Source: Lachnospiraceae bacterium
Lineage (GTDB): Bacteria; Bacillota; Clostridia; Lachnospirales; Lachnospiraceae
NCBI GenBank assembly: GCA_045597325.1
Contig: JAZLJJ010000011.1
Span: 14,426-78,425, forward strand
Direction of reading: 5' to 3'
DNA: 64,000 nt
The notes beneath the pieces are model-generated. The model saw only the letters and a list, made by a program, of their open reading frames with translations, ran no database searches and was not told where the DNA came from. Shown here in pieces: positions 2,675 through 62,842 of the stretch. Position numbers and translations under genes: made by a program. Position 1 is the first letter of the stretch; each line of letters opens with the position of its first letter.

Positions 2675-3574
2675 ATGAAAGAGTTTTTTAATGCGTTGTT
2701 TCAAGGTGAATTTGTCGATGCATTGAGCAGTTTTGCACCGCTTGTTGTGAAACTGGTGATTGTTCTGCTGCTGGCATGGATCGGCAGCAAACTGATTAAA
2801 TGGGTTCTCAGTCTGCTTGACAAAGCTTTGAATAAGAGCATCGAAAAGGGCATGGACAAGGGAATTGCAAAGTTCTTTAAGTCCAGCTGCAAGGTGCTTC
2901 TGTATATCGTTCTGTTTTTGATTGTTGTGGATCAGCTCGGAGTTCCGATGACATCGTTTGTTACGATTCTGGGTTCTGTCGGTCTTGCTGTCGGCCTTGC
3001 ATTACAGGGCAGCCTGTCCAATTTTGCCGGCGGTGTTCTGATTCTGCTGACACATCCGTTCCGGATCGGCGATTATATTGTTGCCGGCGGACAGGAAGGA
3101 ACCGTTACGGACATCAGCATCTGCTATACCAAACTGCTGACGGTTGACAATCGGACGGTGGTATTCCCGAATGGGACTCTTTCCAATTCCAATCTGGTAA
3201 ATGTGACCGCGGAGCCGTTCCGAAGAATTGATTTGGAAATCCCGGTATCGTACGACGATGACATTCGCGAGGTTCGTTCCATGCTCTTAGAGCTGTGCGA
3301 CCGCGATGCGAGAATTCTGAATGACGGCACAAATGTGAACGGAACGGTGTCTCCGACCGAGAGCCCGGCACCGAAGTTTGTTCGGGAAGTTTATGTCAAA
3401 GATTTCGGAGACAGTTCGATTACGATACTGTACCGTTTCTGGGTACGTCGGGAAGATTACTGGGGTGCCTATTTCGATATGATGGAATCTGTTCGGTATG
3501 CCATGAAGGAACGCGGTTTTACAATCCCGTTCAATCAGTTGGATGTTTCCATCAAAAATGATAAGCGGAACTGA
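2675..3574 (+). CDS. MscS-family mechanosensitive channel
   Basis: 299 aa. Three N-terminal TM helices, then the MscS beta-domain signature PFRIGDYI...GTVTDISICYTKLLTVDNRTVVFPNGTLSNSNLVN. Good RBS. Confidence 0.85.
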   Translation: MKEFFNALFQGEFVDALSSFAPLVVKLVIVLLLAWIGSKLIKWVLSLLDKALNKSIEKGMDKGIAKFFKSSCKVLLYIVLFLIVVDQLGVPMTSFVTILGSVGLAVGLALQGSLSNFAGGVLILLTHPFRIGDYIVAGGQEGTVTDISICYTKLLTVDNRTVVFPNGTLSNSNLVNVTAEPFRRIDLEIPVSYDDDIREVRSMLLELCDRDARILNDGTNVNGTVSPTESPAPKFVREVYVKDFGDSSITILYRFWVRREDYWGAYFDMMESVRYAMKERGFTIPFNQLDVSIKNDKRN

Positions 3575-13547: not shown

Positions 13548-13682
13548 CGAAAGAATTTGCCGGACCGTTCGGCAACAACCGAATACCCGGAACTGCGAAA
13601 CAGCAGATTCCGGGTTGCCGGTGAAGGTACGGGCTCTGATTCGGGGCGGAAAAAATGATAGCAGATTTTTTCAAAATGACAC

Positions 13683-13711: not shown

Positions 13712-13733
13712 ATCAAAGCACGTTAAAATTTTT

Positions 13734-13807
13734 CGAGGCATGGCTCAGTTTGGTAGAGCGCTGCGTTCGGGACGCAGAGGTCGTGGGTTCGAATCCCGTT
13801 GCCTCGA
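13734..13807 (+). tRNA. tRNA-Pro (anticodon CGG)
   Basis: Hand-folded cloverleaf. Acceptor CGAGGCA/TGCCTCG, D arm GCTC-AGTTTGGTA-GAGC, anticodon arm CTGCG-TTCGGGA-CGCAG, T arm GTGGG-TTCGAAT-CCCGT. Confidence 0.9.
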
Positions 13808-13820
13808 TTCATCCGTGCTT

Positions 13821-13893: not shown

Positions 13894-13948
13894 TTTATTT
13901 TGCCCAAGCGGACAGAAGGAAAGCAGGAAACAGCATAAGTTAATACTT

Positions 13949-14022
13949 CGAGGCGTGGCTCAGTTTGGTAGAGCACCGTGTTAGGGACGCGGGGGTCGCG
14001 TGTTCAAGTCACGTCGCCTCGA
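13949..14022 (+). tRNA. tRNA-Pro-like with anticodon AGG (A34)
   Basis: Acceptor CGAGGCG/CGCCTCG (like the first Pro tRNA), anticodon arm CCGTG-TTAGGGA-CGCGG, T arm GCGTG-TTCAAGT-CACGT. The loop reads U33-A34-G35-G36-G37. Confidence 0.8.
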
Positions 14023-14026
14023 TACG

Positions 14027-14056
14027 CACCGTATTCATAGAATACGGTGTTTTTTT
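14027..14056 (+). terminator. rho-independent terminator of the tRNA cluster
   Basis: CACCGTATTC-ATA-GAATACGGTG followed by T7. Confidence 0.85.
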
Positions 14057-14220
14057 ATCTCATAGGTAAGTTCGTCCTATGAGATAAAAAAAGCTCCGCG
14101 GGGATGCACACGCCTGTGCAGAGGAAAAATGTCGCTTCGCGGGGATGCACACGTTTTTGGCCGGGGAAATGGTCGCTTCGCGACGCAAAAGCGGCGCAGC
14201 GTGTCATAAGCAACATGCAT
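14057..14220 (+). repeat. structured ~130-nt intergenic element, copy 1 (diverged, with an internal partial duplication)
   Basis: Starts ATCTCATAGGTAAGTTCGTCCTATGAGATAAAAAAAGCTCCGCGGGGATGCACACGCCTGTGCAGAGGAAAAATGTCGCTTCGCG. The GGGGATGCACACG...GTCGCTTCGCGAC module then repeats, and the 3' hairpin is degenerate. Confidence 0.85.
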
Positions 14221-14387
14221 TCATATACGACAGGCTGTTTTACAATTAACAAAAATGTAACGGTTTTGAATGTTGTTTTGTAACAATCGTTTGATATAAT
14301 GAAACCATAGGAACGAAAATACAATGACAGTATCAACCGACGCATGAGAAAACGCAGAGAATAAAAAGCAATGAGGAGGTAAGGAGT

Positions 14388-16113: not shown

Positions 16114-16242
16114 ATCTCATAGGAACGTTCGTCCTATGAGATAAAGAACGCTCCGCGAGGATGCACACGCCTGTGCAGAGGAAAAATGTCGCTTCGCGAC
16201 ACACAGGCGGCGCGAGCATATCGTAAGCGATATGCTTTGTTC
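16114..16242 (+). repeat. structured ~130-nt intergenic element, copy 2
   Basis: ATCTCATAGGAACGTTCGTCCTATGAGATAAAGAACGCTCCGCGAGGATGCACACGCCTGTGCAGAGGAAAAATGTCGCTTCGCGACACACAGGCGGCGCGAGCATATCGTAAGCGATATGCTTTGTTC. Confidence 0.95.
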
Positions 16243-16329: not shown

Positions 16330-17301
16330 ATGGAGAAATTTCATGAATTTTGCGAAACGCTGAGAACCGGGACGGAAGAGACAATGGGAACCGGGTATGA
16401 GGTGTCGCTTCGAACGGTGAAGAAGAATAACAATGTGACTTTGACGGGACTGATGATTCGGGAGGATGGGGCCAATGTCATTCCGACCATTTATCTGGAT
16501 CCGTATTATGAGCAGTATCTGGAGGGAAGATTGCTGACGGGAATCGAAGAAGAGATTCTTGATATTTATCGAAAGAACCGTGTGCCCCGGCAGACAGAAC
16601 TGAGTCTGGATTACGAGTCCGTAAAGGAGCGGATTTTCTTTTTGATGATGAATCGCGGCCTGAATCACGAAATGTTAGAATCCATGCCGCATGTGGAAAT
16701 CGGTGATTTGGCGGTTGGATTTCAGTGGATTGTTGATTTGGAGGAACGGCAAATCGGTGCTGTGAGGATTACCGAAGATCAGACGGCCATGTGGAATGTG
16801 ACAACGGAAGAACTGATTCGGGATGCACTGAACAATACGGTGCGTTCCCTGCCGCCGGTGCTGAAAAGCATCGAGGATGTACTGCGGGAAATTCTGATTG
16901 GGGATTCGGGACAGGACGGCAATAAGGAAAATGCGGAGAAACGGGACGAAATCATTCGATTATTGGGAGAAGAGACGGATCGAAAGACATTTCCGATGTA
17001 TGTCCTGTCCAACGAAACCGCACGGCTCGGGGCATCGTCTCTGCTGTCGCTTCCGTTTCTGAATCGGTTCCGCGATACCATCGGAGAGGATTTTTGGATT
17101 CTTCCGTCCAGCATTCATGAGGTCATTCTGGTTCCGGAATCGGAAGTGGAAGACCGGGAAAAACTGAAACAGATGGTACGGGAAATCAACGAGACCCAGG
17201 TGCCGATTCAGGAATTTTTGTCGGATGAGGTGTATCTGTACAGTGAATTTGAGAAACTGATACCCGATTCGTTCCGGACAAGACTGCTGCAGGCCGGTTG
17301 A
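16330..17301 (+). CDS. hypothetical protein, DUF5688-like
   Basis: The ORF is open from 16297 and the first ATG is at 16330. The N-terminus ...KKNNNVTLTGLMIREDGANVIPTIYLDPYYEQY resembles DUF5688 proteins of Lachnospiraceae (recall only). Start uncertain and RBS weak. Confidence 0.5.
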   Translation: MEKFHEFCETLRTGTEETMGTGYEVSLRTVKKNNNVTLTGLMIREDGANVIPTIYLDPYYEQYLEGRLLTGIEEEILDIYRKNRVPRQTELSLDYESVKERIFFLMMNRGLNHEMLESMPHVEIGDLAVGFQWIVDLEERQIGAVRITEDQTAMWNVTTEELIRDALNNTVRSLPPVLKSIEDVLREILIGDSGQDGNKENAEKRDEIIRLLGEETDRKTFPMYVLSNETARLGASSLLSLPFLNRFRDTIGEDFWILPSSIHEVILVPESEVEDREKLKQMVREINETQVPIQEFLSDEVYLYSEFEKLIPDSFRTRLLQAG

Positions 17302-17420
17302 TGCTGTTTGAGCAAGACTGCTGCAGGCAGCTGACGTTGTTTGAGCAAGACTACTGCAGGCCGGTTGACGCTGTTCGGACAAGACTGCTGCAGGCCGGCT
17401 GACACTGTTCGGGCAAAATG
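17281..17420. repeat. tandem repeat, 33-34 bp x 4, starting inside the last codons of the upstream CDS
   Basis: CAAGACTGCTGCAGG recurs at 17289, 17323, 17356 and 17390. Unit 1 holds the TGA stop (17299-17301). Confidence 0.9.
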
Positions 17421-17478
17421 TATTGAGAAGTATCGGAAAAAGAAAATGCCGTACCCGTTCGGGTACGGCAATCGGCAA

Positions 17479-17654: not shown

Positions 17655-17710
17655 GCATATCTTGAAAGAAAACGAGAGAACGGATATCTTACGACCGCGG
17701 CGGTTGAAAC

Positions 17711-17808
17711 GTGAGAGAACGGAAGCCGGGGAGAGAACGGAAGCAGGCGGGAACGGAAGCAGGCGGGAACGGAAGCCGGGAGAGAACGGAAACAGAGCAA
17801 GAACGAAC
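17711..17808. repeat. short tandem repeats of GAACGGAAGC(A/C)GG, ~16-19 bp x 5
   Basis: gagagaacggaagccgggga / gagaacggaagcaggcgg / gaacggaagcaggcgg / gaacggaagccggga / gagaacggaaacagagc. Confidence 0.85.
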
Positions 17809-25420: not shown

Positions 25421-25550
25421 GAAATTGCGGGAACGGCGGCCGAGCCGGTGAGGACAATGCGGGAACGGCGGCTGAGCCGGTGAGGACAATGCGGGAACGG
25501 CGGCCGAGCCGGTGAGATGACGGCAGTGCGGCACGCGCCGGAATTGCGGG
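25400..25550. repeat. tandem repeat, 32 bp x 3 plus a partial fourth, directly after the AraC-family stop codon
   Basis: TGCGGGAACGGCGG recurs at 25426, 25458 and 25490 (and 25535). The last ~20 nt of the CDS resemble a diverged unit. Confidence 0.9.
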
Positions 25551-26425: not shown

Positions 26426-28540
26426 TTGAGTACACAAAACAACGAGAACGGAAACGGAGGAAAGAACGACAACAACAAAAAGAAGGGACTGGCGACAAGA
26501 ATCATTGCCACTATTATCATTTCCCTCATTTTTATTTGTTGCTGGATGTATGTTTCGTCCGAAATCGATAAGGTTCAAAATAAGGAAATCAGCTACGATG
26601 AATTCCTGGCAATGCTGGAAACCGATACCATCGAGAAACTGGAAATTCAGGAGGATTACGACAAAATCGTAATCACACCGAAGGAAGGCACGGCGGAGGA
26701 TAAGCGGACCAAGACGTATTATACGGGAATCATTACCGGAGACGAGGAACTGGTTGCCCGGTTGGAACGGGCGAGAGCGAGAATGGAACAGGAAGGCAAA
26801 GAGCCGTTCACCTATGAAAGACCGACGGTGGATAAGGGAACGACGCTGATTGACATTGTATTGTCATATGTTCTTCCGTTCGTATTTTTCTATCTGGTTC
26901 TTTGGGGTCTGTACCGCATGCTTACGAAAAACGGCGGAATCGGCGGACTCGGTGCCGGCAAATCGACGGCCAAGATGTATGTCGAGAAAGAAACCGGAAT
27001 TACTTTTAAGGATGTTGCGGGACAGGAGGAAGCCAAGGAATCCGTTTTGGAACTTGTGGATTTCCTGCATGACCCGGCAAAATATACCAGAATCGGTGCG
27101 AAACTGCCGAAGGGTGCGCTGCTGGTCGGCCCGCCCGGAACCGGTAAAACGCTGTTGGCCAAGGCCGTTGCGGGAGAAGCGAAGGTACCGTTCTTCTCAC
27201 TGTCCGGTTCGGATTTTGTAGAAATGTATGTCGGTGTCGGTGCGTCCCGAGTTCGTGATTTGTTCCGTCAGGCGCAGTCGATGGCACCGTGTATCGTATT
27301 TATTGATGAGATTGTTGCCATCGGTAAGAGCCGTGACAGCAGATACGGCGGCGGAAATGATGAGCGGGAACAGACACTGAACCAGCTCCTTGCCGAAATG
27401 GACGGCTTTGATACGTCCAAGGGTATTGTCATTTTGGCTGCGACAAACCGTCCCGAGGTATTGGATAAGGCACTTCTCCGTCCGGGTCGATTTGACCGCC
27501 GGATTATTGTTGACAAGCCGGATTTGAAAGGCCGTCTGGCAACACTGAAGGTACATGCGAAGAACGTATTGATGCACGATTCCGTTGATTTGGAAGAGAT
27601 TGCACTGGCTACGAGCGGTGCGGTCGGTTCCGATTTGGCCAATATTATCAATGAAGCCGCAATTCTTGCCGTTAAGGAAGGACGTTCCGTGGTACGGCAG
27701 TCCGACCTGATGGAATCGGTGGAAGTTGTATTTGCGGGAAAAGAGAAGAAAGACCGGATCCTCGGACCGGAGGAGAAGCGAATCGTCGCTTACCACGAAG
27801 TCGGTCATGCCCTGGTAGCAGCACTTCAGAAGGGTGCCGAGCCGGTTCAGAAGATTACCATAGTTCCGAGAACCATGGGAGCCCTCGGGTACACCATGCA
27901 GGTTCCGGAAGAAGAAAAATACCTGAATTCCAAAGAGGAAATCCTCATTTCCCTTCGAACTTTCTGCGGCGGTCGTGCTGCGGAAGCGGTGAAATTCAAT
28001 TCCGTAACGACCGGTGCCAGCAATGATATCGAGAGAGCAACGGCACTGGCCCGTCAGATGATTACCATGTACGGTATGTCGGATGAGTTCGGAATGGTTG
28101 CACTGGAAACGGTGGAAAGCAGATATCTGGACGGACGTCCGGTTGTGACCTGCAGTAACGAGACGGCAACCAAGATTGACGATGAAGTGAAGCGGATTAT
28201 GTCGGAATGCTATAACGAAGCGGTTCGCATGCTGACGGAAAATATGGAAATTATGGACGAAGCGGCAAACTTCCTGATTGAAAAGGAAACGATTACCGGC
28301 AAGCAGTTCATGGAGATTTTCAACCGTCATCGCGGAATTGTCGAAACGACATCGGATGCGCCCGCAGAGGAGCAGTCCGTTATCGGGAGTTCGTCGGTTG
28401 AGCCTGCAGAAGAACTGAACACGGCAGAGCCGGCAACGGCAGAGCCGAAGACGGAAGAGTCGAACACGGAAGAGCCGAAGACGGCAGAGCCGAAGACGGA
28501 AGAGCCGGCAACGGAAAACCGGAGTACGCTCGGAGTGTAA
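26426..28540 (+). CDS. ftsH: ATP-dependent zinc metalloprotease FtsH
   Basis: TM helices, Walker A GPPGTGKT, second region of homology, HEVGHAL zinc site. TTG start with AGGAGG 7 nt upstream. C-terminal (T-A/E-E-P-K/A) repeat tail. Confidence 0.95.
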
Positions 28541-28607
28541 TCCGATACCGGCTGACACGACAATTGTTCCGCGGACGGTCCGAACAATGAGTATGAATGG
28601 CAACGGG

Positions 28608-28638
28608 CCGGGAACCGCATGTTCCCGGTCCGGTCTTT
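28608..28638 (+). terminator. terminator-like hairpin after ftsH
   Basis: CCGGGAAC-CGCAT-GTTCCCGG followed by TCCGGTCTTT (a weak T-tract). Confidence 0.5.
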
Positions 28639-28768
28639 ATCTCATAGGAAAGTTCGTCCTATGAGATAAAAAAACGCTTCGCGAGGATGCACACGCCTGT
28701 GCAGAGGAAAAATGTCGCTTCGCGACGCACAGGCGGCGCGAGCATATCGCAAGCGATATGCTTTGTTC
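28639..28768 (+). repeat. structured ~130-nt intergenic element, copy 3
   Basis: Near-identical to copies 4-6, from ATCTCATAGGAAAGTTCGTCCTATGAGAT to GAGCATATCGCAAGCGATATGCTTTGTTC. Confidence 0.95.
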
Positions 28769-31848: not shown

Positions 31849-32787
31849 ATGCAGTATTGCTTTGGAATCGATGTCGGCGGAACGACTATCAAGTGCGGTC
31901 TGTTCAATAGCATCGGAGAAGTTTTGGATAAATGGGAAATTCCGACAGACAGAGATGCCGACGGAGTCAAAATCCCCGGCGACATTGCCGCTTCCATTCA
32001 GCTTAAAATGGCGGAAAAGAACCTGACCGGGGAACAGCTGAGCGGTGTCGGAATCGGAGTTCCCGGCCCGGTATTGGACGACGGAACGGTTCTTTTGTGC
32101 CCGAATCTCGGATGGAAGAAACTCAACATTCGCACTATTATGGAGCAGATGCTTGGGGTGCCGGTTCGCGTCGGAAATGATGCCAACGTGGCGGCTCTCG
32201 GAGAACAGTGGAAGGGCGGCGGACGCGGCTTTTCCGATATGATGATGGTAACGCTCGGAACCGGTGTCGGCGGCGGTCTGATTTTAAATAAGAAAATTGT
32301 TTGCGGAAGCAACGGTGCGGCGGCGGAGCTGGGTCATATCATCGTCAATTCCGAGGAAACGGATTGCTGCGGTTGCGGCGGTCACGGTCATTTGGAACAA
32401 TACGCATCGGCAACGGGAATTGTACGGATGGCGAAGAAGAAACTCGCTTCCGAGTCGGTCATTTCCACATTGCACGGGTATGAGAATCTGACGGCAAAGG
32501 ACATTTTCGATGAGGCGAAAAAGGGTGATTCGGTTGCTCTGGAGCTGGTCGATATGCTCGGCAAATATCTGGCAATGGCGTTGTCCCACGTGGCTGCGGT
32601 TGTCGATCCGGTAGCGTTTGTTATCGGCGGCGGAGTCAGCAGAGCGGGAAGTATTTTGATTGATGCGATTGAGCGTCATTACAATGAGAATCTGATGGAA
32701 ATGCTGAAGGGTAAAGTGTTCCGGCTGGCGGAACTCGGCAACGATGCCGGCATTTTCGGTGCGGCCAGAATGGTTCTCGGAGAATAA
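31849..32787 (+). CDS. glk: ROK-family glucokinase
   Basis: GIDVGGTTIK, ROK zinc motif CGCGGHGHLEQY, GGGV... Confidence 0.88.
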   Translation: MQYCFGIDVGGTTIKCGLFNSIGEVLDKWEIPTDRDADGVKIPGDIAASIQLKMAEKNLTGEQLSGVGIGVPGPVLDDGTVLLCPNLGWKKLNIRTIMEQMLGVPVRVGNDANVAALGEQWKGGGRGFSDMMMVTLGTGVGGGLILNKKIVCGSNGAAAELGHIIVNSEETDCCGCGGHGHLEQYASATGIVRMAKKKLASESVISTLHGYENLTAKDIFDEAKKGDSVALELVDMLGKYLAMALSHVAAVVDPVAFVIGGGVSRAGSILIDAIERHYNENLMEMLKGKVFRLAELGNDAGIFGAARMVLGE

Positions 32788-32799
32788 ACGGGCGGGAAT

Positions 32800-32908
32800 C
32801 CGAACGGAAGTCGGAACCGGCCGAACAGGCAGAAGTCGGAACCGGCCGAACAGGCAAAAGTCGGAACCGGCTGAACAGACGGAAGTCGGAACCGGCCGAA
32901 CAGGCAAA
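32800..32908. repeat. tandem repeat, 25 bp x 4, between the glk stop and the murB RBS
   Basis: GAAGTCGGAACCGG(C/T)(C/T)GAACAG(G/A)C recurs with starts at 32807, 32832, 32857 and 32882. Confidence 0.9.
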
Positions 32909-32928
32909 AAAAGAAAACAGGAGCGGTC

Positions 32929-33852
32929 ATGATGACAAACGAGCAAAAGCGACAACTGGAAATGCTGTACAGCACACAGGGCGTGTGCCGGTTTGAGGAA
33001 CCGATGGCGGAACATACGACGTTTCGTATCGGCGGACCGGCCGAGATCTGGCTTGTGCCGGACTCGGTGGAGCAGCTGCAGAAGACCGTGACCTTTTTGA
33101 AACAGGAAGGAATCCGTATGCAGATTCTCGGAAACGGAAGCAATGTCCTTGTTTCCGACGAGGGAGTTCGCGGAGCGGTTATCCGGATGGAAGACCGTCG
33201 GAGCAAAGTACTGTATGATACTGACGGAGAGGTGACAATGGCGACCGCACCGGCGGGGATGTCGCTGTCCGCCTTTGCCCGGGAAGTATGTGACAAAGGA
33301 TATGCGGAAATGGAATATGCGACGGGAATTCCGGGAAGCGTCGGCGGTGCGATTGTTATGAATGCCGGGGCATACGAAGGGGAAATCCGAAATCAGCTGC
33401 AGTCGGCCAAAGTTCTGACGGAAGACGGCGAGATTGTAAATCTGACCGCAGAGGATTTGAAACTGTCGTACCGATACAGCATCATTCCGGAGAAGCGGTA
33501 TCTGGTGCTGAGCGGAACATTTGCCCTGAAACCGGGAAATCGGGACGAAATCCGTGCCAAGGTGCTGGATTTGGCAACGAGGCGCAGGGAGAAGCAGCCG
33601 TTGGAATACCCCAGCGCAGGCAGTACATTTAAGCGGCCGGAAGGAAATTATGCAGGGAAGCTGATTCAGGAGTCCGGTTTGCGGGGATATCGTGTCGGGG
33701 ATGCCATGGTGTCCGAAAAGCATTGCGGTTTTGTCATTAATGCGGGTGCCGCGACGGCATCGGAGGTAAAACAGTTGATTGCCGATGTGCAGCGCATCGT
33801 ACAGGAGAAGACCGGCATTTTGCTGGAGCCGGAAGTGAAATTTCTGGAATAA
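32929..33852 (+). CDS. murB: UDP-N-acetylenolpyruvoylglucosamine reductase
   Basis: TFRIGGPAE, GNGSNVLV, PSAGSTFKRP, VSEKHCGFVIN. Confidence 0.93.
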   Translation: MMTNEQKRQLEMLYSTQGVCRFEEPMAEHTTFRIGGPAEIWLVPDSVEQLQKTVTFLKQEGIRMQILGNGSNVLVSDEGVRGAVIRMEDRRSKVLYDTDGEVTMATAPAGMSLSAFAREVCDKGYAEMEYATGIPGSVGGAIVMNAGAYEGEIRNQLQSAKVLTEDGEIVNLTAEDLKLSYRYSIIPEKRYLVLSGTFALKPGNRDEIRAKVLDLATRRREKQPLEYPSAGSTFKRPEGNYAGKLIQESGLRGYRVGDAMVSEKHCGFVINAGAATASEVKQLIADVQRIVQEKTGILLEPEVKFLE

Positions 33853-34835: not shown

Positions 34836-35093
34836 ATGATTTCAAAAGACATGACAGTTAACATTCCCAATGGCCTTGGTGGGAGACCGGTTGCCTTACT
34901 GGTACAGGTGGCAAGTCGTTACGACAGCAGCGTTTATGTTCAGTGCGACAATAAGAAAGTTAATGCAAAGAGCATCATGGGTATGATGAGTCTTGCCCTT
35001 CCGACCGGTGCAGTGGTTACCGTTACGGTGAACGGAGCGGATGAAGAGGCTGCGATGAAGGATATTGAAGCATATCTGAGTGGGGAGCAGTAA
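34836..35093 (+). CDS. crh: HPr-family phosphocarrier paralog lacking His15 (Crh-like)
   Basis: 85 aa. NGLGGRPVA replaces the HPr motif GLHARPA (His15 becomes Gly). The Ser46 region KVNAKSIMGMMSL is retained. Confidence 0.85.
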   Translation: MISKDMTVNIPNGLGGRPVALLVQVASRYDSSVYVQCDNKKVNAKSIMGMMSLALPTGAVVTVTVNGADEEAAMKDIEAYLSGEQ

Positions 35094-35149
35094 AGAAGAC
35101 AGCACAAATTGAGTGCATAAGTAAGAAAACAGGCTGCATTGCAGCAATG

Positions 35150-35193
35150 AGAAGTCCTTCGGGTCACCTCCGGGTGATTCGGAGGGCTTTTTT
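35150..35193 (+). terminator. rho-independent terminator after crh
   Basis: CCTCCG-GGTGATT-CGGAGG inside a longer GC-rich hairpin, followed by CTTTTTT. Confidence 0.65.
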
Positions 35194-35370
35194 ATCTCAT
35201 AGGAAAGCTCGTCCTATGAGATAAAAAAACGCTCCGCGAGGATGCACACGTCTGTGCAGAGGAAAAATGTCGCTTCGCGACGCACAGGCGGCGCGAGCAT
35301 ATCGCAAGCGATATGCTTTGTTCTGTCATAGGAAAGTTCGTCCTATGAGATAAAAAAACATTCCGCGAGG
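35194..35370 (+). repeat. structured ~130-nt intergenic element, copy 4, plus a second partial unit (hairpin + A-run + CATTCCGCGAGG)
   Basis: A full unit is followed by TGTCATAGGAAAGTTCGTCCTATGAGATAAAAAAACATTCCGCGAGG. Confidence 0.95.
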
Positions 35371-35479
35371 AATAAAAGAACACCTTCAATAGAAGAATTT
35401 GGTCTTGTCAAATGAGCTATATTTGTGTTACATTGTTTTTGTTTCTTCAACACGTAGTGAAACGGAAGGGGAAAAGATA

Positions 35480-37693
35480 ATGAATCAAAAAACAGTAAAA
35501 AAATGGATGTGCTTACTCAGTGTGCTGTGTTGTCTGATGCTCGGTAACCGGACGACAGGGACGGCTTTGGCAGAGGCTGAAGTACCGGATACCGTAACAG
35601 CAGAGGTGGCAGCGAAAGAAACTACGGAAACAGCGAAAGAGACTACGGATGCGGAGCCGGTGGCAGCAGTGGATGAATCATTTGCAGAAACCACAGAGGC
35701 CACCAATATTGCAAGCGGTACCGGCTGGTATTTGGATCGTGCCGGATGCCTGCATCTTACAGGAAAAATAGAAGAAATTGGCTGGAAAGATTACAAATCG
35801 AATATTATAACAGTTATCGCTGAGACGGGTTCATCACTCGGACAGGATGGAAGAAAAGTGTTTATGGATTGTAATAATCTCGTATCTGCTGACTTAAGTA
35901 AGTTGGATACGTCGAATGTACTTGATATGTCCGATATGTTTAACGGATGTTATTCGTTAACAACATTGGATGTCAGTACATGGGATACGTCGCATGTGGC
36001 ACATTTCATTCGTATGTTTTACGACTGTACAGTATTAACGACATTGGATGTCAGTGAGTGGGATATGTCGGGCGCGATATTTATTGATGACATGTTTGGG
36101 GAGTGTCGTGCATTAACAACCTTGGATGTCAGTAAGTGGCGTACACCGCATTTATACAGCGCGACATATACGTTTTTTCGTTGTAGAAAATTAACGACCC
36201 TGGATGTCAGCAATTGGGATACATCGAACGTGACGGATATGAGCGGAATATTTGATGGTTGCGAGGCAGTGAAGGAATTGGATGTCAGCAAGTGGGATAC
36301 GTCAAACGTGACGAGAATGGGCAAAATGTTTATGTGCTGTTATTCCGTAACGGAATTGGACGTCAGCAAGTGGAATGTATCAAACGTGACGAGTATGCAG
36401 AACATGTTCAATGAGTGCTCGGCTTTATCGGAATTGGATGTCAGCAAGTGGAATGTATCAAACGTGACCAATATGAGCAACATGTTTAAGCGTTGCAGTT
36501 CGTTGACGGCACCGGCTGTCAGCAATTGGGACATGTCAAGCGTGACAGATATGGATTACATGTTTTCATATTGCAGTTCATTAACTACACTGGATCTCAG
36601 CGGGTGGGATATCTCGAAAGTGAAAAGACTGGATGACTTTGTTTGGGAGAGTAATTCGCTTCATACGATTATTTGGCCCAAACAGGTAAAGGATGATCTT
36701 AGGCTGAAATGGCTGGCAGAGGAATTGCTCGAGTATTGCCCTGTATGGTGTGATTCCAAAACGGGGAAGATGTATTCTGATGAGAAGGTAATGCAGAAAT
36801 TATCCGGTTCGGTGACACTTGTTGTCCATGGCATTGATATCCGGATAAGTAATGGTTGGGAGGGAGTTATCCTTAAGTGGACTCCGGTAGCAGGCAGCCC
36901 GGTAACGGTCTTTCGTAAGGAAGCCGATATTTATCGAAATTCATCCGACGATTTGAGTGGTCTGGATTACACTAGGTATAATGGCAAGTGGACGAAAATG
37001 GCAACCACGACGGAAGGGGTGTATTATGACAAAGAGGTAACAAACGCAAAAGGATATGATTATATTGTGTTGCGAAACAATGCGACAACGCCGCGGTCGA
37101 TACCTCTGAATATATGCCGTTATGTTCAGCCTCCGACGATAGAGTCAGTGACCAATGTGGCCGGCGGAGTGAAGGTGAGCTGGTCGTCTGAGAGCTATAG
37201 GCCGGACGGATTCTTCGTGTATCGCAAAGACACTCAGAACGGTACGTGGCACATGATTGGCTCTACCCAAAAGAATCTGACCTATACGGATACAACCGTG
37301 GAAAACGGAGTAGTATACTATTATGCCGTGAAAGAATTCTATAAAGAGACGAAAACGTACCGAAGCTACAGTGCTTCCAGTTCCGCAAAGAATACAGTTT
37401 ATGCGAAGAATGTATTTATTTCCGCGATTTCCAATCCGCGTCCCGGTGATTTCACGGTGGTTCATTCCGTAAACGACAAGGCAACCGGATACCAGATTGC
37501 ATACAGTACCAATTCCAATATGAGCGGCTCCAAGTACGTGACTCAGGCGGGAGGAAACTATACAACCATTAAGGCAACCGGACTGACAAAGGGCAAGACA
37601 TATTATGTCATGGTACGCCCGTATAAGACCGTCGCCGGTTACACCTTCTACGGTGCATGGAGTGCCAAGAAGGTGGTTACCGTTACGAAGTAA
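35480..37693 (+). CDS. secreted surface protein: DUF285/BspA-type leucine-rich repeats + FN3-like repeats
   Basis: Signal peptide MNQKTVKKWMCLLSVLCCLM...ALAEA. About 10 copies of a 25-aa repeat L..LDVS.WDTSNVT.M..MF..C (about 35900-36640). C-terminal modules such as GVKVSWS...G(Y/F).VYRKDT..GTW..IG....LTYTDTTVENGVVYYYAVKA are FN3-like. Confidence 0.8.
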   Translation: MNQKTVKKWMCLLSVLCCLMLGNRTTGTALAEAEVPDTVTAEVAAKETTETAKETTDAEPVAAVDESFAETTEATNIASGTGWYLDRAGCLHLTGKIEEIGWKDYKSNIITVIAETGSSLGQDGRKVFMDCNNLVSADLSKLDTSNVLDMSDMFNGCYSLTTLDVSTWDTSHVAHFIRMFYDCTVLTTLDVSEWDMSGAIFIDDMFGECRALTTLDVSKWRTPHLYSATYTFFRCRKLTTLDVSNWDTSNVTDMSGIFDGCEAVKELDVSKWDTSNVTRMGKMFMCCYSVTELDVSKWNVSNVTSMQNMFNECSALSELDVSKWNVSNVTNMSNMFKRCSSLTAPAVSNWDMSSVTDMDYMFSYCSSLTTLDLSGWDISKVKRLDDFVWESNSLHTIIWPKQVKDDLRLKWLAEELLEYCPVWCDSKTGKMYSDEKVMQKLSGSVTLVVHGIDIRISNGWEGVILKWTPVAGSPVTVFRKEADIYRNSSDDLSGLDYTRYNGKWTKMATTTEGVYYDKEVTNAKGYDYIVLRNNATTPRSIPLNICRYVQPPTIESVTNVAGGVKVSWSSESYRPDGFFVYRKDTQNGTWHMIGSTQKNLTYTDTTVENGVVYYYAVKEFYKETKTYRSYSASSSAKNTVYAKNVFISAISNPRPGDFTVVHSVNDKATGYQIAYSTNSNMSGSKYVTQAGGNYTTIKATGLTKGKTYYVMVRPYKTVAGYTFYGAWSAKKVVTVTK

Positions 37694-40139: not shown

Positions 40140-40932
40140 CAAGGTTTTGCTGGTGAGCATGTGGGCGTACAATTTCGTATATGCCTATGGGTTGTGTGCG
40201 TTTGTTATGAAACGGCGGTTTGGAAAGGTTGCCAGTGTTTTTCTGTTTCTCGGACTCAGTTCGGTGATAATCGGGTTTCGCATCTGGTTTGTCATCGGAG
40301 GCGGACAGGATGCGGTGCCGGTGGGAAGCATGGTGACGATGTTGGGGTGCTTCTCTCTGCAGGTTGTTTTGTTTCGCGGAAAATGGTTCCGGCAGCTGAT
40401 GAATTATGCAATTGTATCGGTGTTTGCGATACTGGCGGAAATTCTCGCGTCGTTCTTTGCTTCGAGCATTACGGGAAGTGTGGAATCATTTAACTTTAAC
40501 GATCCCGGATTCCGGGTCGGCATGTTACTGTTCTTCCCGTCTTTGTCGGCGATGATATATCCGACGATTGTGCTCTTGCGAAAAGTGAACCGTTTATCGG
40601 TCGGCGAAGTGATCGGTGCGTATTCGTGGCTTGTGGTGACATTTCCGTTAAGCCAAATGTTCCTGATTAATCTCTACACCGGCGTCACGACGGTAGTGAA
40701 ACCGATTGGTTTGATTGGTGCACTGGTCGGAATTACATCCGATTGTCTGCTGATTTGGTTCCTCGATAAGGAGCACCAGAAATTCCGACTCCGGAAAGAG
40801 CTCGAAGAAGAAAAACAAATGCTGGAATTTGAGGAAATGACGTATCGGGACCTGATGTCGCAGCAGGAAGAAATCGCGCAGCTGCGGCACGATTACCGGA
40901 ACCAGATGATTGCACTGAAAGCGATAAAATGA
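40102..40932 (+). CDS. polytopic membrane protein ending in a histidine-kinase H-box (LRHDYRNQMIAL) with no ATPase domain
   Basis: About 6 TM helices. The last two TM helices plus the coiled coil are paralogous to the N-terminus of the preceding gene (WLVVTFPLSQMFLINLY vs WLFVLFPISQFFLIINAY). Start uncertain (TTG 40102, GTG 40129 or ATG 40159). Confidence 0.6.
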   Translation: MKQRKRGPHVIFNKVLLVSMWAYNFVYAYGLCAFVMKRRFGKVASVFLFLGLSSVIIGFRIWFVIGGGQDAVPVGSMVTMLGCFSLQVVLFRGKWFRQLMNYAIVSVFAILAEILASFFASSITGSVESFNFNDPGFRVGMLLFFPSLSAMIYPTIVLLRKVNRLSVGEVIGAYSWLVVTFPLSQMFLINLYTGVTTVVKPIGLIGALVGITSDCLLIWFLDKEHQKFRLRKELEEEKQMLEFEEMTYRDLMSQQEEIAQLRHDYRNQMIALKAIK

Positions 40933-41030
40933 ACGGGCACCGAAACCAGATGATGGCACTGAAAGCGATAAAATGAACGATTATCGAGACCAAATATTGG
41001 CATCGAAAAAGCAATAAAGTGAAATAAAAA
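40888..41030. repeat. tandem repeat, 44 bp x 3, re-iterating the H-box codons plus the stop codon
   Basis: ACCAGATGAT at 40901 and 40945, ACCAAATATT at 40989. The units translate as HDYRNQMIALKAIK*, GHRNQMMALKAIK* and DYRDQILASKKQ*. Confidence 0.9.
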
Positions 41031-41257: not shown

Positions 41258-42417
41258 ATGAGAAGATTTATGTTGTTACTTTTGTCGGTTTTCTTGCTGG
41301 CAAGCGTATCTGCTTGTGGGAAGACGGATAAAAATGATACGCAGAGGCAAGATGACAAACAAAAGACCACTCAAATACCGACGGTGGCACCGACTGCAAC
41401 GCAAGTGCCGTCACCGATGCCTACAAAAGAAACAACTATTCCAACAAACCCGCCGACACCGGAACCAACGGATGGTGTGATTCTAAAACGGGGAAAATGT
41501 ATTCCGATGTGAAGCCATTGCAAGCAATATCCGGTCCGGTGACACTTATTTGTCATGGCATTTCTGTTCAAGTAGGAAATGGTTGGGAAGGAGTTACCAT
41601 TAAATGGACTCCGATACAGGGACAATCGGTAACGGTATATCGTAAAAGGATGTATCTTGAGCAAGACCCATCTGCCGATTGGAATGGTACGAGAAGTTAT
41701 GACCTCGACACAGAGTGGACGAAACTGGCGACTACGACGGCAGGAGGGTATTATGATAAATCGGTTACAAACGGAGACGGATATGAGTATCGTGCGGTAC
41801 TAAACAAGGCGAAAACACCGCAGCGGACGTATTCGAGTATATGCCGTTACGTTCAAGCACCGACAATCCAGTCGGTGACCAATGTGGCCGGCGGAGTGAA
41901 GGTGAGTTGGTCGGCAGTGGATGGTGCAAACGGATACATAGTATATCGCAAAGACACTCAGGCAGGAACATGGCATATGATTGGTTCCACACAGAAGAAT
42001 CTGACCTATACGGATACAACCGTGGAGAACGGAGTGGTATATTATTATGCCATCAAGGCATTCTTTTATGAGATGGGAAAATCCAGAAGTTACAGTGCTT
42101 CCAGTTCTGCTAAAAACACGGTTTATGTGAAGAACGTATTCATTTCGTCCATTGCAAATCCGCGTCCCGGTGATTTCACGGTGGTTCATTCCGTCAATGA
42201 CAAAGCAACCGGATACCAGATTGCATACAGTACCAATTCCGATATGAGCGGTTCCAAGTACGTAACTCAGGCAGGTGGAAGTTATACGACTATTAAGGCA
42301 ACCGGACTGACAAAGGGCAAGACATATTACGTCATGGTACGCCCGTATAAGATCGTCGCCGGTTATACCTTCTACGGTGCATGGAGCGCCAAGAAAACGA
42401 TTACGTTGACGAAGTAG
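41258..42417 (+). pseudogene. lipoprotein signal/PT-linker ORF (41258..41512) out of frame with an FN3-like ORF (41497..42417): either a frameshifted paralog of the C-terminus of 35480..37693 or a -1 frameshift-dependent gene
   Basis: Lipobox LLASVSAC and a Pro/Thr linker in frame A. Frame B is homologous to residues ~WCDSKTGKMYSD...VTVTK of the upstream surface protein. The two frames overlap by 16 nt, and the overlap contains G_GGA_AAA. Confidence 0.6.
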
Positions 42418-42445
42418 ATAAGTAAATTCATGGCAATACAAACTA

Positions 42446-42476
42446 AGACCTGTCGCTCTCCGCGGCAGGTCTTTTT
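42446..42476 (+). terminator. rho-independent terminator
   Basis: AGACCTG-TCGCTCTCCGCGG-CAGGTCT followed by T5. Confidence 0.8.
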
Positions 42477-42625
42477 ATCTCATAGGAAAGTTCGTCCTAT
42501 GAGATAAAAAACGCTCCGCGAGGATGCACACGCCTGTGCAGAGGAAAAATGTCGCTTCGCGACGCACAGGCGGCGCGAGCATATCGCAAGCGATATGCTT
42601 TGTTCTGACATGAGATATAGGACAA
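42477..42625 (+). repeat. structured ~130-nt intergenic element, copy 5 (plus a decayed second hairpin)
   Basis: A full unit 42477-42606, then TGACATGAGATATAGGACAAAACG. Confidence 0.95.
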
Positions 42626-47140: not shown

Positions 47141-47268
47141 CGAGCGGCCGGAGCGGCGATGTAACAAGGCCGCAGAACGCCGGAGAAACCCGCTCTCGAG
47201 CGGCCGGAGCGGCGATGTGACAAGGCCGCAGAACGCCGGAGGAACCTGCTCTCGAGCGGCCGGAACAG
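47141..47268. repeat. tandem repeat, 56 bp x 2.3, between deoC and deoD
   Basis: CGAGCGGCCGGAGCGGCGATGT(A/G)ACAAGGCCGCAGAACGCCGGAG(A/G)AAC(C/-)C(G/T)CTCT at 47141 and 47197, with a partial unit at 47253. Confidence 0.9.
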
Positions 47269-48067: not shown

Positions 48068-48097
48068 CCCGGCTTCGATGAGGAGCCGGGATTTTTT
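48068..48097 (+). terminator. rho-independent terminator after deoD
   Basis: CCCGGCT-TCGATGAGG-AGCCGGG-A-T6. Confidence 0.85.
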
Positions 48098-48276
48098 ATC
48101 TCACAGGAAAGTTCGTCCTGTGAGATAAAAAACGCTCCGCGAGAATGCACACGCCTGTGCAGAGGAAAGATGTCGCTTCGCGACGCACAGGCGGCGCGAG
48201 CATATCGCAAGCGATATGCTTTGTTCTCTCACAGGAAAGTTCGTCCTGTGAGAAAAAAACGCTCCGCGAGGATGCA
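48098..48276 (+). repeat. structured ~130-nt intergenic element, copy 6, plus a second hairpin unit; both hairpins carry compensatory changes
   Basis: CTCACAGGAAAGTTCGTCCTGTGAG (twice) where the other copies have CTCATAGGAAAGTTCGTCCTATGAG. Confidence 0.95.
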
Positions 48277-48396
48277 GACTCATTTTCAAACAGGCTCGAA
48301 ACCGGCTGCGCAGAAGGCAGAAATGCAGTGTCCGGCGCAGGGATGAATGCCGCTGTTGTGTACTTTGACGAAAAGAAGGTTATTTCGGTTATTTGA

Positions 48397-52362: not shown

Positions 52363-53373
52363 ATGAGCAGTTGTTTTGTTCCCGAAGGCTATAAGGCCGT
52401 ATTGGGAAATCGGGAAACACAGATCGCAATTAAGAAGGTAAAGGATTATTTTCAGAGAGAACTGGCAACGCAGCTGAATCTGCATCGTGTGACGGCACCG
52501 TTGTTTGTAACACCGGAGTCCGGTCTGAACGATAACCTGAACGGTGTAGAGCGTCCGGTTGTGTTCGGAATTCGTGAAAATGATGATCACCCCGTGGAAA
52601 TCGTGCATTCTCTTGCAAAATGGAAGCGTATGGCACTGGCCAAATACGGATTCCGCGTAGGCGAAGGTCTGTATACGGATATGAATGCCATTCGCCGGGA
52701 TGAGGATACCGACAATATTCACTCCATTTTCGTGGATCAGTGGGACTGGGAAAAGGTGATTACCCGGGAGCAGAGAACGGAAGAGTATCTGAAAAAGACG
52801 GTGAAGGGTGTGTATGAAGCACTTCGCGTCACCGAAAAATATATTGCCAACCAGTATGATTATGTTGAGTGCATTTTGCCCGAGGAGATTACGTTTATTA
52901 CGTCGCAGGAACTGCTGGACCGCTATCCGGACAAGACCGCAAAGGAACGTGAATATGCGGCCGCAAAGGAATACGGAGCGGTTTTCATTATGAAAATCGG
53001 CGATTTGCTCAGCAACGGAGAACGCCATGACGGACGCGCACCGGACTATGATGACTGGCAGTTGAACGGAGATATCATGGTATATTATCCCGTCAATGAT
53101 ATTGCATTGGAATTGTCCTCCATGGGAATCCGCGTCGATGAAGAAGCGCTGCTGAGCCAGCTGGAAAAAGCCGGCTGCCCGGAACGGAAGGAAATGGAAT
53201 TCCAGAAGGCTTTGCTGGAGGGCAAACTGCCGTACACGGTCGGCGGCGGAATCGGACAGTCCCGAATCTGTATGTTCTTCCTGCGGAAGACGCATATCGG
53301 AGAAGTACAGGTTTCGGTATGGCCCGCAGCGGATGTCGAATATGCCCGCGCGCATGGTGTGGAGCTGTTATAA
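52363..53373 (+). CDS. asnA: aspartate--ammonia ligase
   Basis: RRDEDTDNIHSIFVDQWDWE and GGGIGQSRICMFFL. Confidence 0.92.
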   Translation: MSSCFVPEGYKAVLGNRETQIAIKKVKDYFQRELATQLNLHRVTAPLFVTPESGLNDNLNGVERPVVFGIRENDDHPVEIVHSLAKWKRMALAKYGFRVGEGLYTDMNAIRRDEDTDNIHSIFVDQWDWEKVITREQRTEEYLKKTVKGVYEALRVTEKYIANQYDYVECILPEEITFITSQELLDRYPDKTAKEREYAAAKEYGAVFIMKIGDLLSNGERHDGRAPDYDDWQLNGDIMVYYPVNDIALELSSMGIRVDEEALLSQLEKAGCPERKEMEFQKALLEGKLPYTVGGGIGQSRICMFFLRKTHIGEVQVSVWPAADVEYARAHGVELL

Positions 53374-53510
53374 TCGGTCCGGCGGACGTGCCAGATACCG
53401 AAACGGAAAATATGCCCGCGCGCATGGCGTGGAGCTGTTATAATCGGTCCGGCGGACGTGCCAGATACCGAAACGGAATATGCCCGCGCACATGGCGTGG
53501 AGCGGATATA
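53338..53510. repeat. tandem repeat, 68-70 bp x 2.5, re-iterating the last 11 codons, the stop and the 3' flank of asnA
   Basis: TATGCCCGCGCGCATGG(T/C)GTGGAGCTGTTATAATCGGTCCGGCGGACGTGCCAGATACCGAAACGGAA at 53341 and 53411, with a third partial unit from 53479. Confidence 0.95.
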
Positions 53511-61462: not shown

Positions 61463-62815
61463 ATGAGTATGAAGAAAGCAGTTCTGATTGCAATGTTTGC
61501 AGCAACCATGCTGGTTTTGTGTGCTTGCGGCAAAAGTTCGAATAATACAACAAACAATACGTCATCCGTAACACCGGGCGGAACGACGACGCAGCCGGCT
61601 TCGGTACAGTTTTTCCATGAATGCGGCGGCGAGATGAAACTCGGTGAATACAAAGGTATCACCTATGATATTGTCACATACGAAATCAAAGACGAGGATT
61701 TGGATCAGCAGATTAAGGAATTCATGACCAAGTACCCCAATTATGTTAAGGACGATACCCGTGACAATACCGAAGTAAAAGACGGCGATACCCTGAATAT
61801 TGATTATTCGGGAAGAGTCGGCGAGGTTGTATTTGACGGCGGTACCGCAAAGGATCAGTTCCTGACAATCGGTTCCAATCAGTTTATTGACGGCTTTGAA
61901 TCTTCCCTGATCGGTAAGAAGGTCGGTGAAACCGTGGACATTGATGTGACGTTCCCGAACCCTTATCCGAACAATCCGGATTTGGCCGGTGCGGCAGCTG
62001 CATTTACGGTTACCATCAATTATGTCGGAAAGGCACAGGAAGACATTGACGATGCTTACGTCAAGAAGTATTTCTCTCCGACCGCGGAAGATGTTGCTAC
62101 ATTGAAAGCAAAGCTCAAAGAGCAGATGGAAATCAGCGCGAAGGAAGATGCAGAGGATTACGAGCTGTCTCAGGTAATCAAGAAGATTATCAGCAATTCC
62201 GAGTTTACCAAGATTGATCAGGCCGATGTGGATTTCTATTACGAACAAAGTGTTCTGCAGTATCAGCAGGTTGCCAATCAGTACGGAGTAACTCTGGAAA
62301 TGGTGGTAACCCAGCTTACGGGCGAGTATGAAAACTTTGATGAGTTTAAGAAGAAAATGACGAGTGACGCCCAGGAAGTTGTTAAACAGTTTATGGTTCT
62401 GGAAGCAATTATCGAGGCGGAACAGATTACCGTTTCCGATGAAGAATACGCAAAGTGCCTGCAGGATTATAAAGAGCGTGTCGGTGTTTCGGCACAGTAC
62501 TCCGATGCGGAGTTTGAGAAAATGGTCGGCAAGGATTACATCCATTATTGCGCATTGACCGATAAGGCACTGGATTTCATTTATGACAATGCCAAGGGCG
62601 TTGAGAAACAGCCTGCGGAAGGCGGCGAGAATGCGGAATCCGGCGAGAACGGTGAAGGCGGCGAGAACGCTGAAGGCGGCGAGAACGGTGAATCCGGCGA
62701 GAACGCGGAATCCGGCGAGAACGCGGAAGGCGGCGAGAATGCGGAAGGCGGCGAGAACGCTGAAGGCGGCGAGAACGCTGAGAACGCCGTAACCACTGAG
62801 AACGGCGAAAACTAA
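61463..62815 (+). CDS. trigger-factor-like FKBP PPIase with a lipoprotein signal peptide and an acidic C-terminal repeat tail
   Basis: Lipobox LVLCACG. TF-type PPIase DGDTLNIDYSGRVGEVVFDGGTA...FIDGFESSLIGKKVGE...VTFP. TF C-terminal domain. No N-terminal ribosome-binding domain. Nine 18-bp repeats encode E(G/S)GEN(A/G). Confidence 0.75.
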   Translation: MSMKKAVLIAMFAATMLVLCACGKSSNNTTNNTSSVTPGGTTTQPASVQFFHECGGEMKLGEYKGITYDIVTYEIKDEDLDQQIKEFMTKYPNYVKDDTRDNTEVKDGDTLNIDYSGRVGEVVFDGGTAKDQFLTIGSNQFIDGFESSLIGKKVGETVDIDVTFPNPYPNNPDLAGAAAAFTVTINYVGKAQEDIDDAYVKKYFSPTAEDVATLKAKLKEQMEISAKEDAEDYELSQVIKKIISNSEFTKIDQADVDFYYEQSVLQYQQVANQYGVTLEMVVTQLTGEYENFDEFKKKMTSDAQEVVKQFMVLEAIIEAEQITVSDEEYAKCLQDYKERVGVSAQYSDAEFEKMVGKDYIHYCALTDKALDFIYDNAKGVEKQPAEGGENAESGENGEGGENAEGGENGESGENAESGENAEGGENAEGGENAEGGENAENAVTTENGEN

Positions 62816-62842
62816 GCATCCGAACAGTAACAGAAATGACAG

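Follow-up and report, generated by a model that had tools for sequence, protein, structure and literature searches.

Introduction

The insertion sequences of the IS200/IS605 family insert 3′ of a 4-5 nt target, which is recognised by a guide located 5′ of the foot of the left hairpin, with no target duplication and with use of the lagging-strand template (PMC5027513). The Geobacillus ISGst elements target TTTAT and TTCAT, carry a right-end motif similar to the target, show guide covariation and occur in gene-less forms as palindrome-associated transposable elements (PATEs) (PMC10055086). Group IIC introns home, in one orientation, just past the stem-loop and T-run of intrinsic terminators (PMC1702495). 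The subject of the present analysis is a gene-less 128-nt repeat in a 64,000-nt stretch of DNA (the window) from a Lachnospiraceae bacterium (GenBank assembly GCA_045597325.1, contig JAZLJJ010000011.1, positions 14,426 to 78,425), which is inserted in one orientation and exactly 3′ of the T-tract and A of intrinsic terminators.

To our knowledge, few elements apart from group IIC introns home to intrinsic terminators. Group IIC introns are ribozyme retroelements of ~700 nt or more, usually with a reverse-transcriptase gene, and group II ribozyme domains extend from a 5′ GUGYG to domains V and VI. Repetitive extragenic palindromes (REPs) are single palindromes of 20-40 nt with a conserved 5′ tetranucleotide that form inverted doublets (REPINs), and both are thought to be mobilised in trans by the Y1 HUH enzyme RAYT (TnpA-REP), which is often encoded by a single-copy gene.

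Insertion sites and recent mobility

A scan of the window finds six full copies and two 3′-truncated units of the repeat, all on the + strand. Copies 2-6 are mutually 94-98% identical, no chance match occurs in 100 shuffles, and three sub-motif searches return only the known copies. A first-pass annotation of the sequence had described a repeat whose copies are all co-oriented and lie directly after terminators; this is borne out by the six copies and generalises to most of the ~58 copies recovered from the wider family. Copy 5 (42478-42605, +) is complete at 128 nt, reads TCTCAT...GCTTTGTTC and follows a host terminator (42445-42477, +) made up of the hairpin GACCTGTCGC...GCGGCAGGTC, TTTTT and A; the upstream gene is at 41497-42417. 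Copy 2 (16115-16242, +; complete, 128 nt) stands directly after ...GATTTTTTTCA and is preceded by a 14-bp stem with a 9-nt loop (-20.5 kcal/mol by folding), and the terminator scan places a hairpin and T-run directly 5′ of copies 1, 3, 4, 5 and 6.

Copy 3 (28640-28768, +; complete, 129 nt) lies upstream of uvrC and after the hairpin 28604-28632 and GTCTTTA. The annotation had considered both parts of this terminator weak, which is correct for the poor T-tract GTCTTTA but not for the hairpin, with its 12 pairs, 9 of them G-C, and -25 kcal/mol. Copy 4 (35195-35323, +; complete, 129 nt) follows the HPr gene terminator (35167-35185) and GCTTTTTTA, and copy 6 (48099-48226, +; complete, 128 nt) follows the terminator 48068-48090 and ATTTTTTA. 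Copy 1 (14058-14222, +) follows the terminator of tRNA-Pro(AGG), with its hairpin at 14026-14050 and its T-run and A extending to 14057. This is an old copy, found in all strains compared, whose right end has decayed and which contains an internal duplication of 41 nt. The tRNA gene itself (13948-14023, predicted by ARAGORN), right after whose terminator copy 1 lies, has an unusual AGG anticodon, is 82% identical to tRNA-Pro(CGG) at 13733-13808 and is not reported by the Rfam tRNA model at gathering score.

The exact ends of the element come from empty sites. The comparison strain is a sister metagenome-assembled genome (GCA_045641285.1, contig JAZUGQ010000033.1, loci L039 and L042; 91-95% identity), to which are added two short metagenome contigs (L040 and L041) reached via cluster members of the flanking proteins; L039-L042 align to window 4360-48944 at 87-96% identity. 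The copy 2 site is empty in three other contigs, where ...GATTTTTTTTCA (also given as …TTTTTTTTCA) is directly joined to GAAACTTC, and in the window ...GATTTTTTTCA is followed by TCTCAT...GCTTTGTTC and then by GAAACTTC. The copy 5 site is empty in the sister strain, where ...GGTCTTTTTA is joined to TGACATGAG, and the window has TCTCAT...GCTTTGTTC between these same two flanks; the target terminator of copy 5 is unaltered at the empty site (L042). At both sites the inserted piece is exactly TCTCAT...TTTGTTC, 128 nt, with zero target duplication. As the copy 2 empty site identifies the preceding A as a host base, the frame of the insert is fixed: the host ends in ...TTTTTA or ...TTTTCA and the element begins with TCTCAT, one base to the left of the junction between AT and CTCAT that had been read from the window sequence. 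The empty-site comparison proposed in the annotation yields exact boundaries, insertion 3′ of TTTTA or TTTCA and neither target duplication nor terminal inverted repeats, an outcome that favours the IS200/IS605-type interpretation. In the empty copy-5 site of the sister strain (L042 15004-15072), the right flank carries a 32-nt tandem duplication (AGATATAGGACAAAA.GTG.TGATAAAAACCG). Locus L014 was considered as a syntenic counterpart of copy 3 and rejected, with 28% protein identity over short stretches.

The same comparison decides the case of an ordinary MITE (miniature inverted-repeat transposable element) derived from an insertion sequence with a DDE transposase. Its size, copy number and intergenic location would fit, but the element has no terminal inverted repeats, the target duplication is of zero length at two clean empty sites and the element faces strictly one way with respect to its target. 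The probability of this origin is virtually nil, and the empty sites refute it, unless other subfamilies show duplications.

Occupied sites can be re-entered, which builds tandem arrays. Where copy 4 is inserted, only an old degenerate unit is present in the sister strain, and in the window the full copy sits between the T-run and A and this older partial unit, copy 4′ (35324-35372, +), a 3′-truncated unit consisting of H1, A-run and P2 only that was pushed downstream by copy 4. Copy 6 is likewise followed by a 3′-truncated unit, copy 6′ (48227-48280, +), with the same H1 variant as copy 6 and with further decayed remnants behind it that are common to window and sister strain. There is no clean empty site here, as remnants occur in both strains and the sister strain holds a 29-nt internal remnant, and the copy 6 site is a hot spot. 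A second partial unit had been noted after copies 4, 5 and 6 and taken as a sign that elements insert next to each other; adjacent insertion is real for copy 4, nested before the older unit, and the partial units stand for copies 4 and 6, but the one after copy 5 (TGACATGAGATATAGGAC...) is host DNA since it also occurs at the empty site. Six intact copies in the window contrast with none in the sister strain's syntenic 42 kb, which indicates a recent burst of insertion in the window lineage. That the element moves, and that it has done so recently in this lineage, is shown by these comparisons.

Structure of the element

The unit folds far better than its shuffles (z = -8.4 as RNA and -7.8 as DNA) and comprises four hairpins, given here with the coordinates of copy 5 (+ strand). 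The left-end hairpin H1 (42478-42504) has the form TCTCATAGGA-AAGTTCG-TCCTATGAGA and is supported by folding and by covariation in 8 of 11 pairs. Immediately 3′ of it, and directly 5′ of the foot of P2, the sequence TAAAAAA (42505-42511) is a candidate DNA guide that complements the target TTTTTTA. Because the host T-run and A exactly complement TAAAAAA, the H1 helix extends into the flank, and the H1 stem together with the pairing of host T-run and A-run forms a perfect helix of ~17 bp with a 7-nt asymmetric loop. P2 (42513-42527), a small hairpin of sequence GCTCC-GCGA-GGA(T)GC in which one T is bulged, is a candidate for protein recognition; no stretch of the family is more conserved in sequence than P2 and the A-run before it.

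The two-tier hairpin H2 (42531-42572) shows covariation and has an outer stem CGCCTGTGC/GCACAGGCG, a purine-rich internal loop and an inner stem GTCGC-TTC-GCGAC. The right end (42579-42605) is formed by H3, GCATATCG-CAAG-CGATATGC, and the tail TTTGTTC, whose last base is the right boundary; H3 and its tail are terminator-like and resemble the target. Written as patterns, the two ends read, on the left, a T-run, a hairpin, an A-run and CGCTCCGCGAGG, and, on the right, a GC-hairpin with a CAAG loop followed by TTTGTTC. The element has no terminal inverted repeats, and the left hairpins H1 and P2 are unrelated in sequence to the right hairpin H3. Three other assignments were considered and rejected. 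P2 and the inner H2 stem are not paired end hairpins, being alike only in the subfamily of the window; a small open reading frame (ORF) from a conserved ATG in H2 is not conserved across genera; and H1 as a promoter or operator is contradicted by the lack of evident sigma-70-like hexamers on reading and by a sequence that varies freely with the stem kept.

Distribution and variation of the family

A genome scan with the H1 pattern returns at least 38 loci in Anaerobium, Anaerocolumna, Lachnoclostridium, Lacrimispora, Lachnobacterium and other genera (carriers with complete genomes include Anaerocolumna sedimenticola CBA3638, NZ_CP048000.1, and Anaerobium acetethylicum GluBS11), and a metagenome scan with the conserved 20-mer of A-run and P2 (AAAACGCTCCGCGAGGATGC) returns at least 120 loci, mostly from the human gut. 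In 482 kb of sequence a covariance model recovers ~58 copies, of which 41 are full length. Searches of Rfam and of the searchable literature by sequence and keyword find no description of the family, which is large and apparently undescribed. The H1 pattern has no match in the viral contigs scanned, so that GenBank matches labelled 'Bacteriophage sp.' are probably bacterial DNA. On a C. perfringens plasmid (NZ_CP119189.1, about 52.6-52.85 kb; L046 5930-6128), an internally deleted and a full unit stand in tandem within an IS982-bounded island with MobC and relaxase genes, and the element therefore travels with mobilisable DNA.

Across the family the architecture is constant and the sequence is variable. 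H1 exists in many variants (TCGTATAGG, TTTCATAGG, CTTTACAGG and TGTAATAGG, among others) whose stems are always compensated, as in copy 6 with CTCACAGG/CCTGTGAG. One subfamily of ~185-215 nt has an extra hairpin and still ends in GCTTTGTTC, and mini forms at several loci keep H1, guide, P2, H3 and tail without H2. The minis of ~75 nt (L079, L083, L091, L100 and L122) have P2 joined to H3 at one point (GGATGC[G/A]CCAAGG) and differ in their H1 types; they represent either a microhomology deletion that has recurred or a mini subfamily that is mobile. In L001 (5344-5372) and L133, the H1 loop is inverted with respect to the rest of the element (CGAACTT for AAGTTCG and GCAA for TTGC), and these are small inversions within the palindrome. 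Tandem arrays contain up to three units. A degenerate 5′ partial unit lies behind about one third of the full units. Truncation at the 3′ end is common, leaving H1 and the A-run and in some cases P2, and truncation at the 5′ end is rare.

The 41 full copies also allow the pairing to be evaluated. In these, 95.8% of cells are paired and double changes occur in 26 of 36 pairs (232 cells), values that are reached by none of 500 shuffles and that collapse in slid controls. Functional RNA normally tolerates G-U far more than A-C. In the element the two types of mismatch are equally rare (22 G-T/T-G and 24 A-C/C-A); as G-T is no commoner than A-C, the hairpins look constrained as DNA, and the pattern suits hairpins of DNA better than hairpins of RNA.

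These statistics bear on two explanations in which the element works as RNA. In the first, a small retroelement or other RNA would give rise to DNA copies at terminators, on the model of group IIC introns. The pairing of A-run and T-run resembles that of an exon-binding site, the excess of 3′-truncated over 5′-truncated copies would suit such copying, and the target is that of group IIC introns (PMC1702495). The even rarity of the two mismatch types argues against it, as do the length of 128 nt, the lack of a ribozyme-like core and of any Rfam match at E<=10, the lack of a promoter and the position downstream of terminators, and the lack of a reverse-transcriptase gene nearby in the window and the syntenic gene tables, so that RNA-mediated insertion is very improbable. 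The Rfam searches, with the whole window at gathering score and with a copy at E<=10, return only tRNAs and noise.

The second explanation dispenses with transposition, the repeat being a multi-copy structured small-RNA gene or a terminator or insulator module kept for its RNA function. The strong structural covariation and the element's own terminator are in its favour, as is the fact that orthologous HPr genes, located at the end of the whiA operon, have an occupied terminator in two different genera, in Lachnoclostridium UBA903 (L020 ~2743-3150, minus) and in the genome of the window (34836-35323). It is hardly credible all the same, given the exact presence and absence of copies at unrelated loci between close strains, copies that are near-identical within a genome and diverge between separate genomes, the occurrence in a plasmid island, the lack of a promoter and of a wobble excess, and the absence from Rfam.

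Target choice

In most of the ~58 copies, from many genera, a strong hairpin precedes the element, followed by a T-run with an A (sometimes a G) at its end, and the flank ends in TTTTA, TTTCA or TTTTG; the exceptions are the tandem junctions TTGTTC and TTCTTG. An adjacent hairpin is present at 26 of 33 occupied sites (79%) and at 31 of 222 unoccupied ones (14%), the sites compared being intergenic T4+(Y)A on the G-rich strand. The terminator is therefore associated with insertion beyond the T-rich motif alone.

Such an association could also reflect survival rather than targeting. Here the enzyme would need only TTTTA or TTTCA; sense insertions into leaders or operons, made polar by the terminator that the element carries, would be lost, and those just after a terminator would be neutral and persist. 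The terminator-like right end is in keeping with this, T-rich 5-nt targets are usual for IS605 elements of Firmicutes, and the adjacent hairpin is missing at 7 of the 33 occupied sites. The enrichment is about 23-fold, however, all three demonstrably recent insertions are located exactly at terminators, and in tandem arrays the right end of the element, itself a hairpin plus T, serves again as a target. Survival in place of targeting is accordingly judged unlikely.

The A-run is guide-like. Its position directly 5′ of the P2 foot matches that of the left guide of IS608, and within subfamilies that share H1 the variants of flank and A-run mirror each other (TTTTTGA/TCAAAAA, TTTTTAA/TTAAAAA at two loci and TTTTATA/TATAAAA), the mirroring being read from non-T bases in the last three flank positions. 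A G at flank position -1 goes together with a C at element position +1 far more often than by chance. The length of the A-run is fixed per family and independent of that of the T-run, and copying of the A-run from the target at insertion was rejected, as its length does not track T-run length. No right-end guide is identified. At L014 (6421-6693, minus), the unusual A-run TAAAACAAC is common to two units that stand in tandem and belong to different subfamilies, and the host T-tract opposite, GTTGTTTA, is just as unusual.

Strand bias

The top strand of the element coincides with the G-rich strand for 49 of 51 copies and for 65 of 69 from an independently ascertained metagenome set (114 of 120 together, ~95%), with local G-C skew used as a stand-in for replication direction. 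The strand bias is strong and, as far as skew stands for replication direction, has the direction predicted for single-stranded transposition. Only ~79% of candidate terminators are on the G-rich strand, and no genuine occupied terminator is found on the opposite strand in these counts.

Proposed mechanism

The reading that best accommodates these observations, held with slightly better than even confidence, is that of a non-autonomous single-stranded DNA transposon in the style of the IS200/IS605 PATEs that homes to terminators with the assistance of a guide. The element would travel as top-strand single-stranded DNA, and its cutting and rejoining would fall to an enzyme provided in trans, of which a Y1 HUH transposase is the likeliest kind. 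The lagging-strand template would expose the host terminator hairpin and its T-run, to which the A-run TAAAAAA, held between H1 and P2, may pair as a DNA guide over TTTTTTA, with H1 as a folded spacer that brings target and guide together. H3 and TTTGTTC would set the right boundary, and the target-like tail could become a new target. Insertion after the T-tract and a right end that resembles a terminator together mean that the host terminator stays intact and that a second one is added.

Several points weigh against this reading. Genes for a transposase (Y1/HUH or TnpB) are found neither in the window, where Pfam was applied to the remaining ORFs, nor in the syntenic gene tables, and a screen of ~1.4 Mb of related loci, by motif only, returns no HUH...Y ORF; the Y1 and TnpB genes suggested by the annotation as companions of the same hairpins are thus missing from the DNA covered. 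No element copy with a coding insert is seen, and the search for an autonomous parent finds none: the recurrent neighbouring ORF families are common host families, the ORFs 3′ of truncated copies appear host-like by reading alone, and there are no orphan ends. The end hairpins of IS608 are nearly identical to each other, and its hairpin lies ~19 nt inside the element, whereas H1 and P2 are unrelated to H3 and H1 begins at the first base of the element. The left cut therefore lies inside a continuous helix, and HUH enzymes normally cut single-stranded stretches. The recently inserted copies 2 and 3 pair over only 4-6 bases with their flanks, so that longer complementarity elsewhere could arise after insertion; either a few paired bases between guide and target are enough, or palindromes that are imperfect at first become perfect later. 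The link to terminators could stem from selection, the element's own terminator being polar elsewhere, and the local G-C skew used for strand assignment is partly confounded with gene orientation.

The annotation had named IS200/IS605 elements and PATEs on the basis of subterminal hairpins at both ends, lack of inverted repeats, insertion 3′ of a conserved oligonucleotide and strand bias. The lack of inverted repeats and of target duplication, the T-rich motif on the 5′ side of the insertion and the strand bias all remain, and hairpins are present at both ends; those of left and right are unrelated, however, H1 abuts the cut site and no transposase gene is found in the DNA covered.

The continuous helix at the left end raises a further candidate, a tyrosine recombinase that would act on a folded single-stranded hairpin with crossover at the border of T-run and H1, the extended H1 helix being the site. 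Integron integrases recombine folded attC sites, and XerCD does likewise with the CTX phage hairpin. A left cut that falls inside a perfect helix (17 bp, asymmetric 7-nt loop), orientation-specific insertion without duplication, arrays with a full intact unit beside the target as in cassette arrays, and dissimilar ends, which are expected for a single recombination site, would all be explained. The proposal is nevertheless quite improbable: no recombinase gene is seen near any copy, hundreds of active direct repeats would invite deletions, the targets have in common only a hairpin of arbitrary sequence and a T-run, and the attC core motifs are absent from the sequence.

The guide-assisted PATE-like transposon also has a bolder variant, which is offered tentatively and is on balance doubtful. 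The element would then represent a new class of single-stranded DNA element that reads terminators as structures, with an A-tract guide, an end that mimics a terminator and a non-standard enzyme, perhaps a single-copy host HUH enzyme or recombinase, and would have colonised a large share of the terminators of human-gut Lachnospiraceae. If true, this would be an element that shapes the 3′-end architecture of these bacteria.

A gene-less DNA element with base-exact and scar-free homing to terminators would constitute a second, independent solution to the safe-harbour problem. As the target is apparently read in part by base pairing with a 7-nt tract, target choice is easy to test and possibly reprogrammable, and the enzyme, once identified, could turn out to belong to a new branch of recombinases that act on single strands, of the HUH or another type. 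Human-gut Lachnospiraceae contain the family in great abundance, and there it is a source of assembly breaks and adds or doubles terminators beside many genes. With at least three of the six window copies missing from the sister strain, it is also a possible strain marker.

Other features of the window

Purine-rich tandem repeats with units of 25-70 nt occupy intergenic leaders at 25437-25540, 17279-17429, 17700-17790, 8170-8220, 32783-32932, 47141-47252, 53339-53478 and 40895-40982. Repeat length or content differs from the sister strain at the four sites compared (8170-8220, 13599-13649, 17700-17790 and 25437-25540), and these repeats account for most inter-strain indels besides the element insertions. 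A DUF285/leucine-rich-repeat surface-protein gene (35399-37693) contains nine 78-nt repeats, and its 3′ part (36745-37505) is duplicated with 77-84% identity at 41472-42229, in a gene ending at 42417; the region of this gene and its duplicate is the least conserved between window and sister strain. Two ORFs have in-frame tandem repeats of 18 nt and 15 nt near their 3′ ends (62579-62840 and 28409-28531, respectively), predicted to encode low-complexity tails.

Comparison with known systems

Like integron attC sites, the element consists of structured imperfect palindromes of a kind recognised by shape, in one orientation, without duplication and in head-to-tail arrays. Unlike them, it has no cassette gene, attI/IntI context or attC core triplets, and its targets are dispersed terminators. 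With REPs, REPINs and their RAYT enzymes it shares high-copy extragenic hairpins near gene 3′ ends and a species-specific sequence; it differs in being a 128-nt unit of four different hairpins that is always co-oriented and inserted exactly after the T-run, and no RAYT-like ORF is found in the related loci by the ~1.4 Mb motif screen.

Group IIC introns are alike in inserting just downstream of a terminator stem-loop, and the annotation had raised terminator targeting of the group II intron type as an alternative. The resemblance is in target choice and nothing beyond it, as the element is 128 nt long, starts with TCTCAT, lacks a ribozyme signature, matches nothing in Rfam and has pairing statistics of the DNA type.

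The IS200/IS605 elements and PATEs (IS608, ISDra2 and ISGst1-5) are the systems with which the element has most points of comparison. It differs from them in showing no cognate TnpA or TnpB (window, syntenic tables and ~1.4 Mb motif screen), in left and right hairpins that are unrelated, in the extra H1 that fills the space from cut site to guide with the cut at the foot of a continuous helix, in a guide-target pairing that is plain Watson-Crick over 4-9 bases, and in a target that includes a neighbouring hairpin of arbitrary sequence, the terminator. It is alike in having no inverted ends, no duplication and gene-less minimal forms, and in the ~7 nt that separate a hairpin from the right boundary. 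Two further resemblances are tentative: the candidate guide directly 5′ of the conserved P2, whose variants covary with the flank, and the location of the copies on the strand expected for a lagging-strand template, with skew as proxy. As in ISGst, the left end lies 3′ of a T-rich motif (TTTTA or TTTCA for the element and TTTAT or TTCAT for ISGst) and the right-end tail, here TTTGTTC, resembles the target. Membership of the family is unproven because no transposase is found, the ends are unlike each other and the left cut falls at the foot of a continuous helix. The element is PATE-like in its working, and its left-end architecture and structural target are new for the IS200/IS605 kind.

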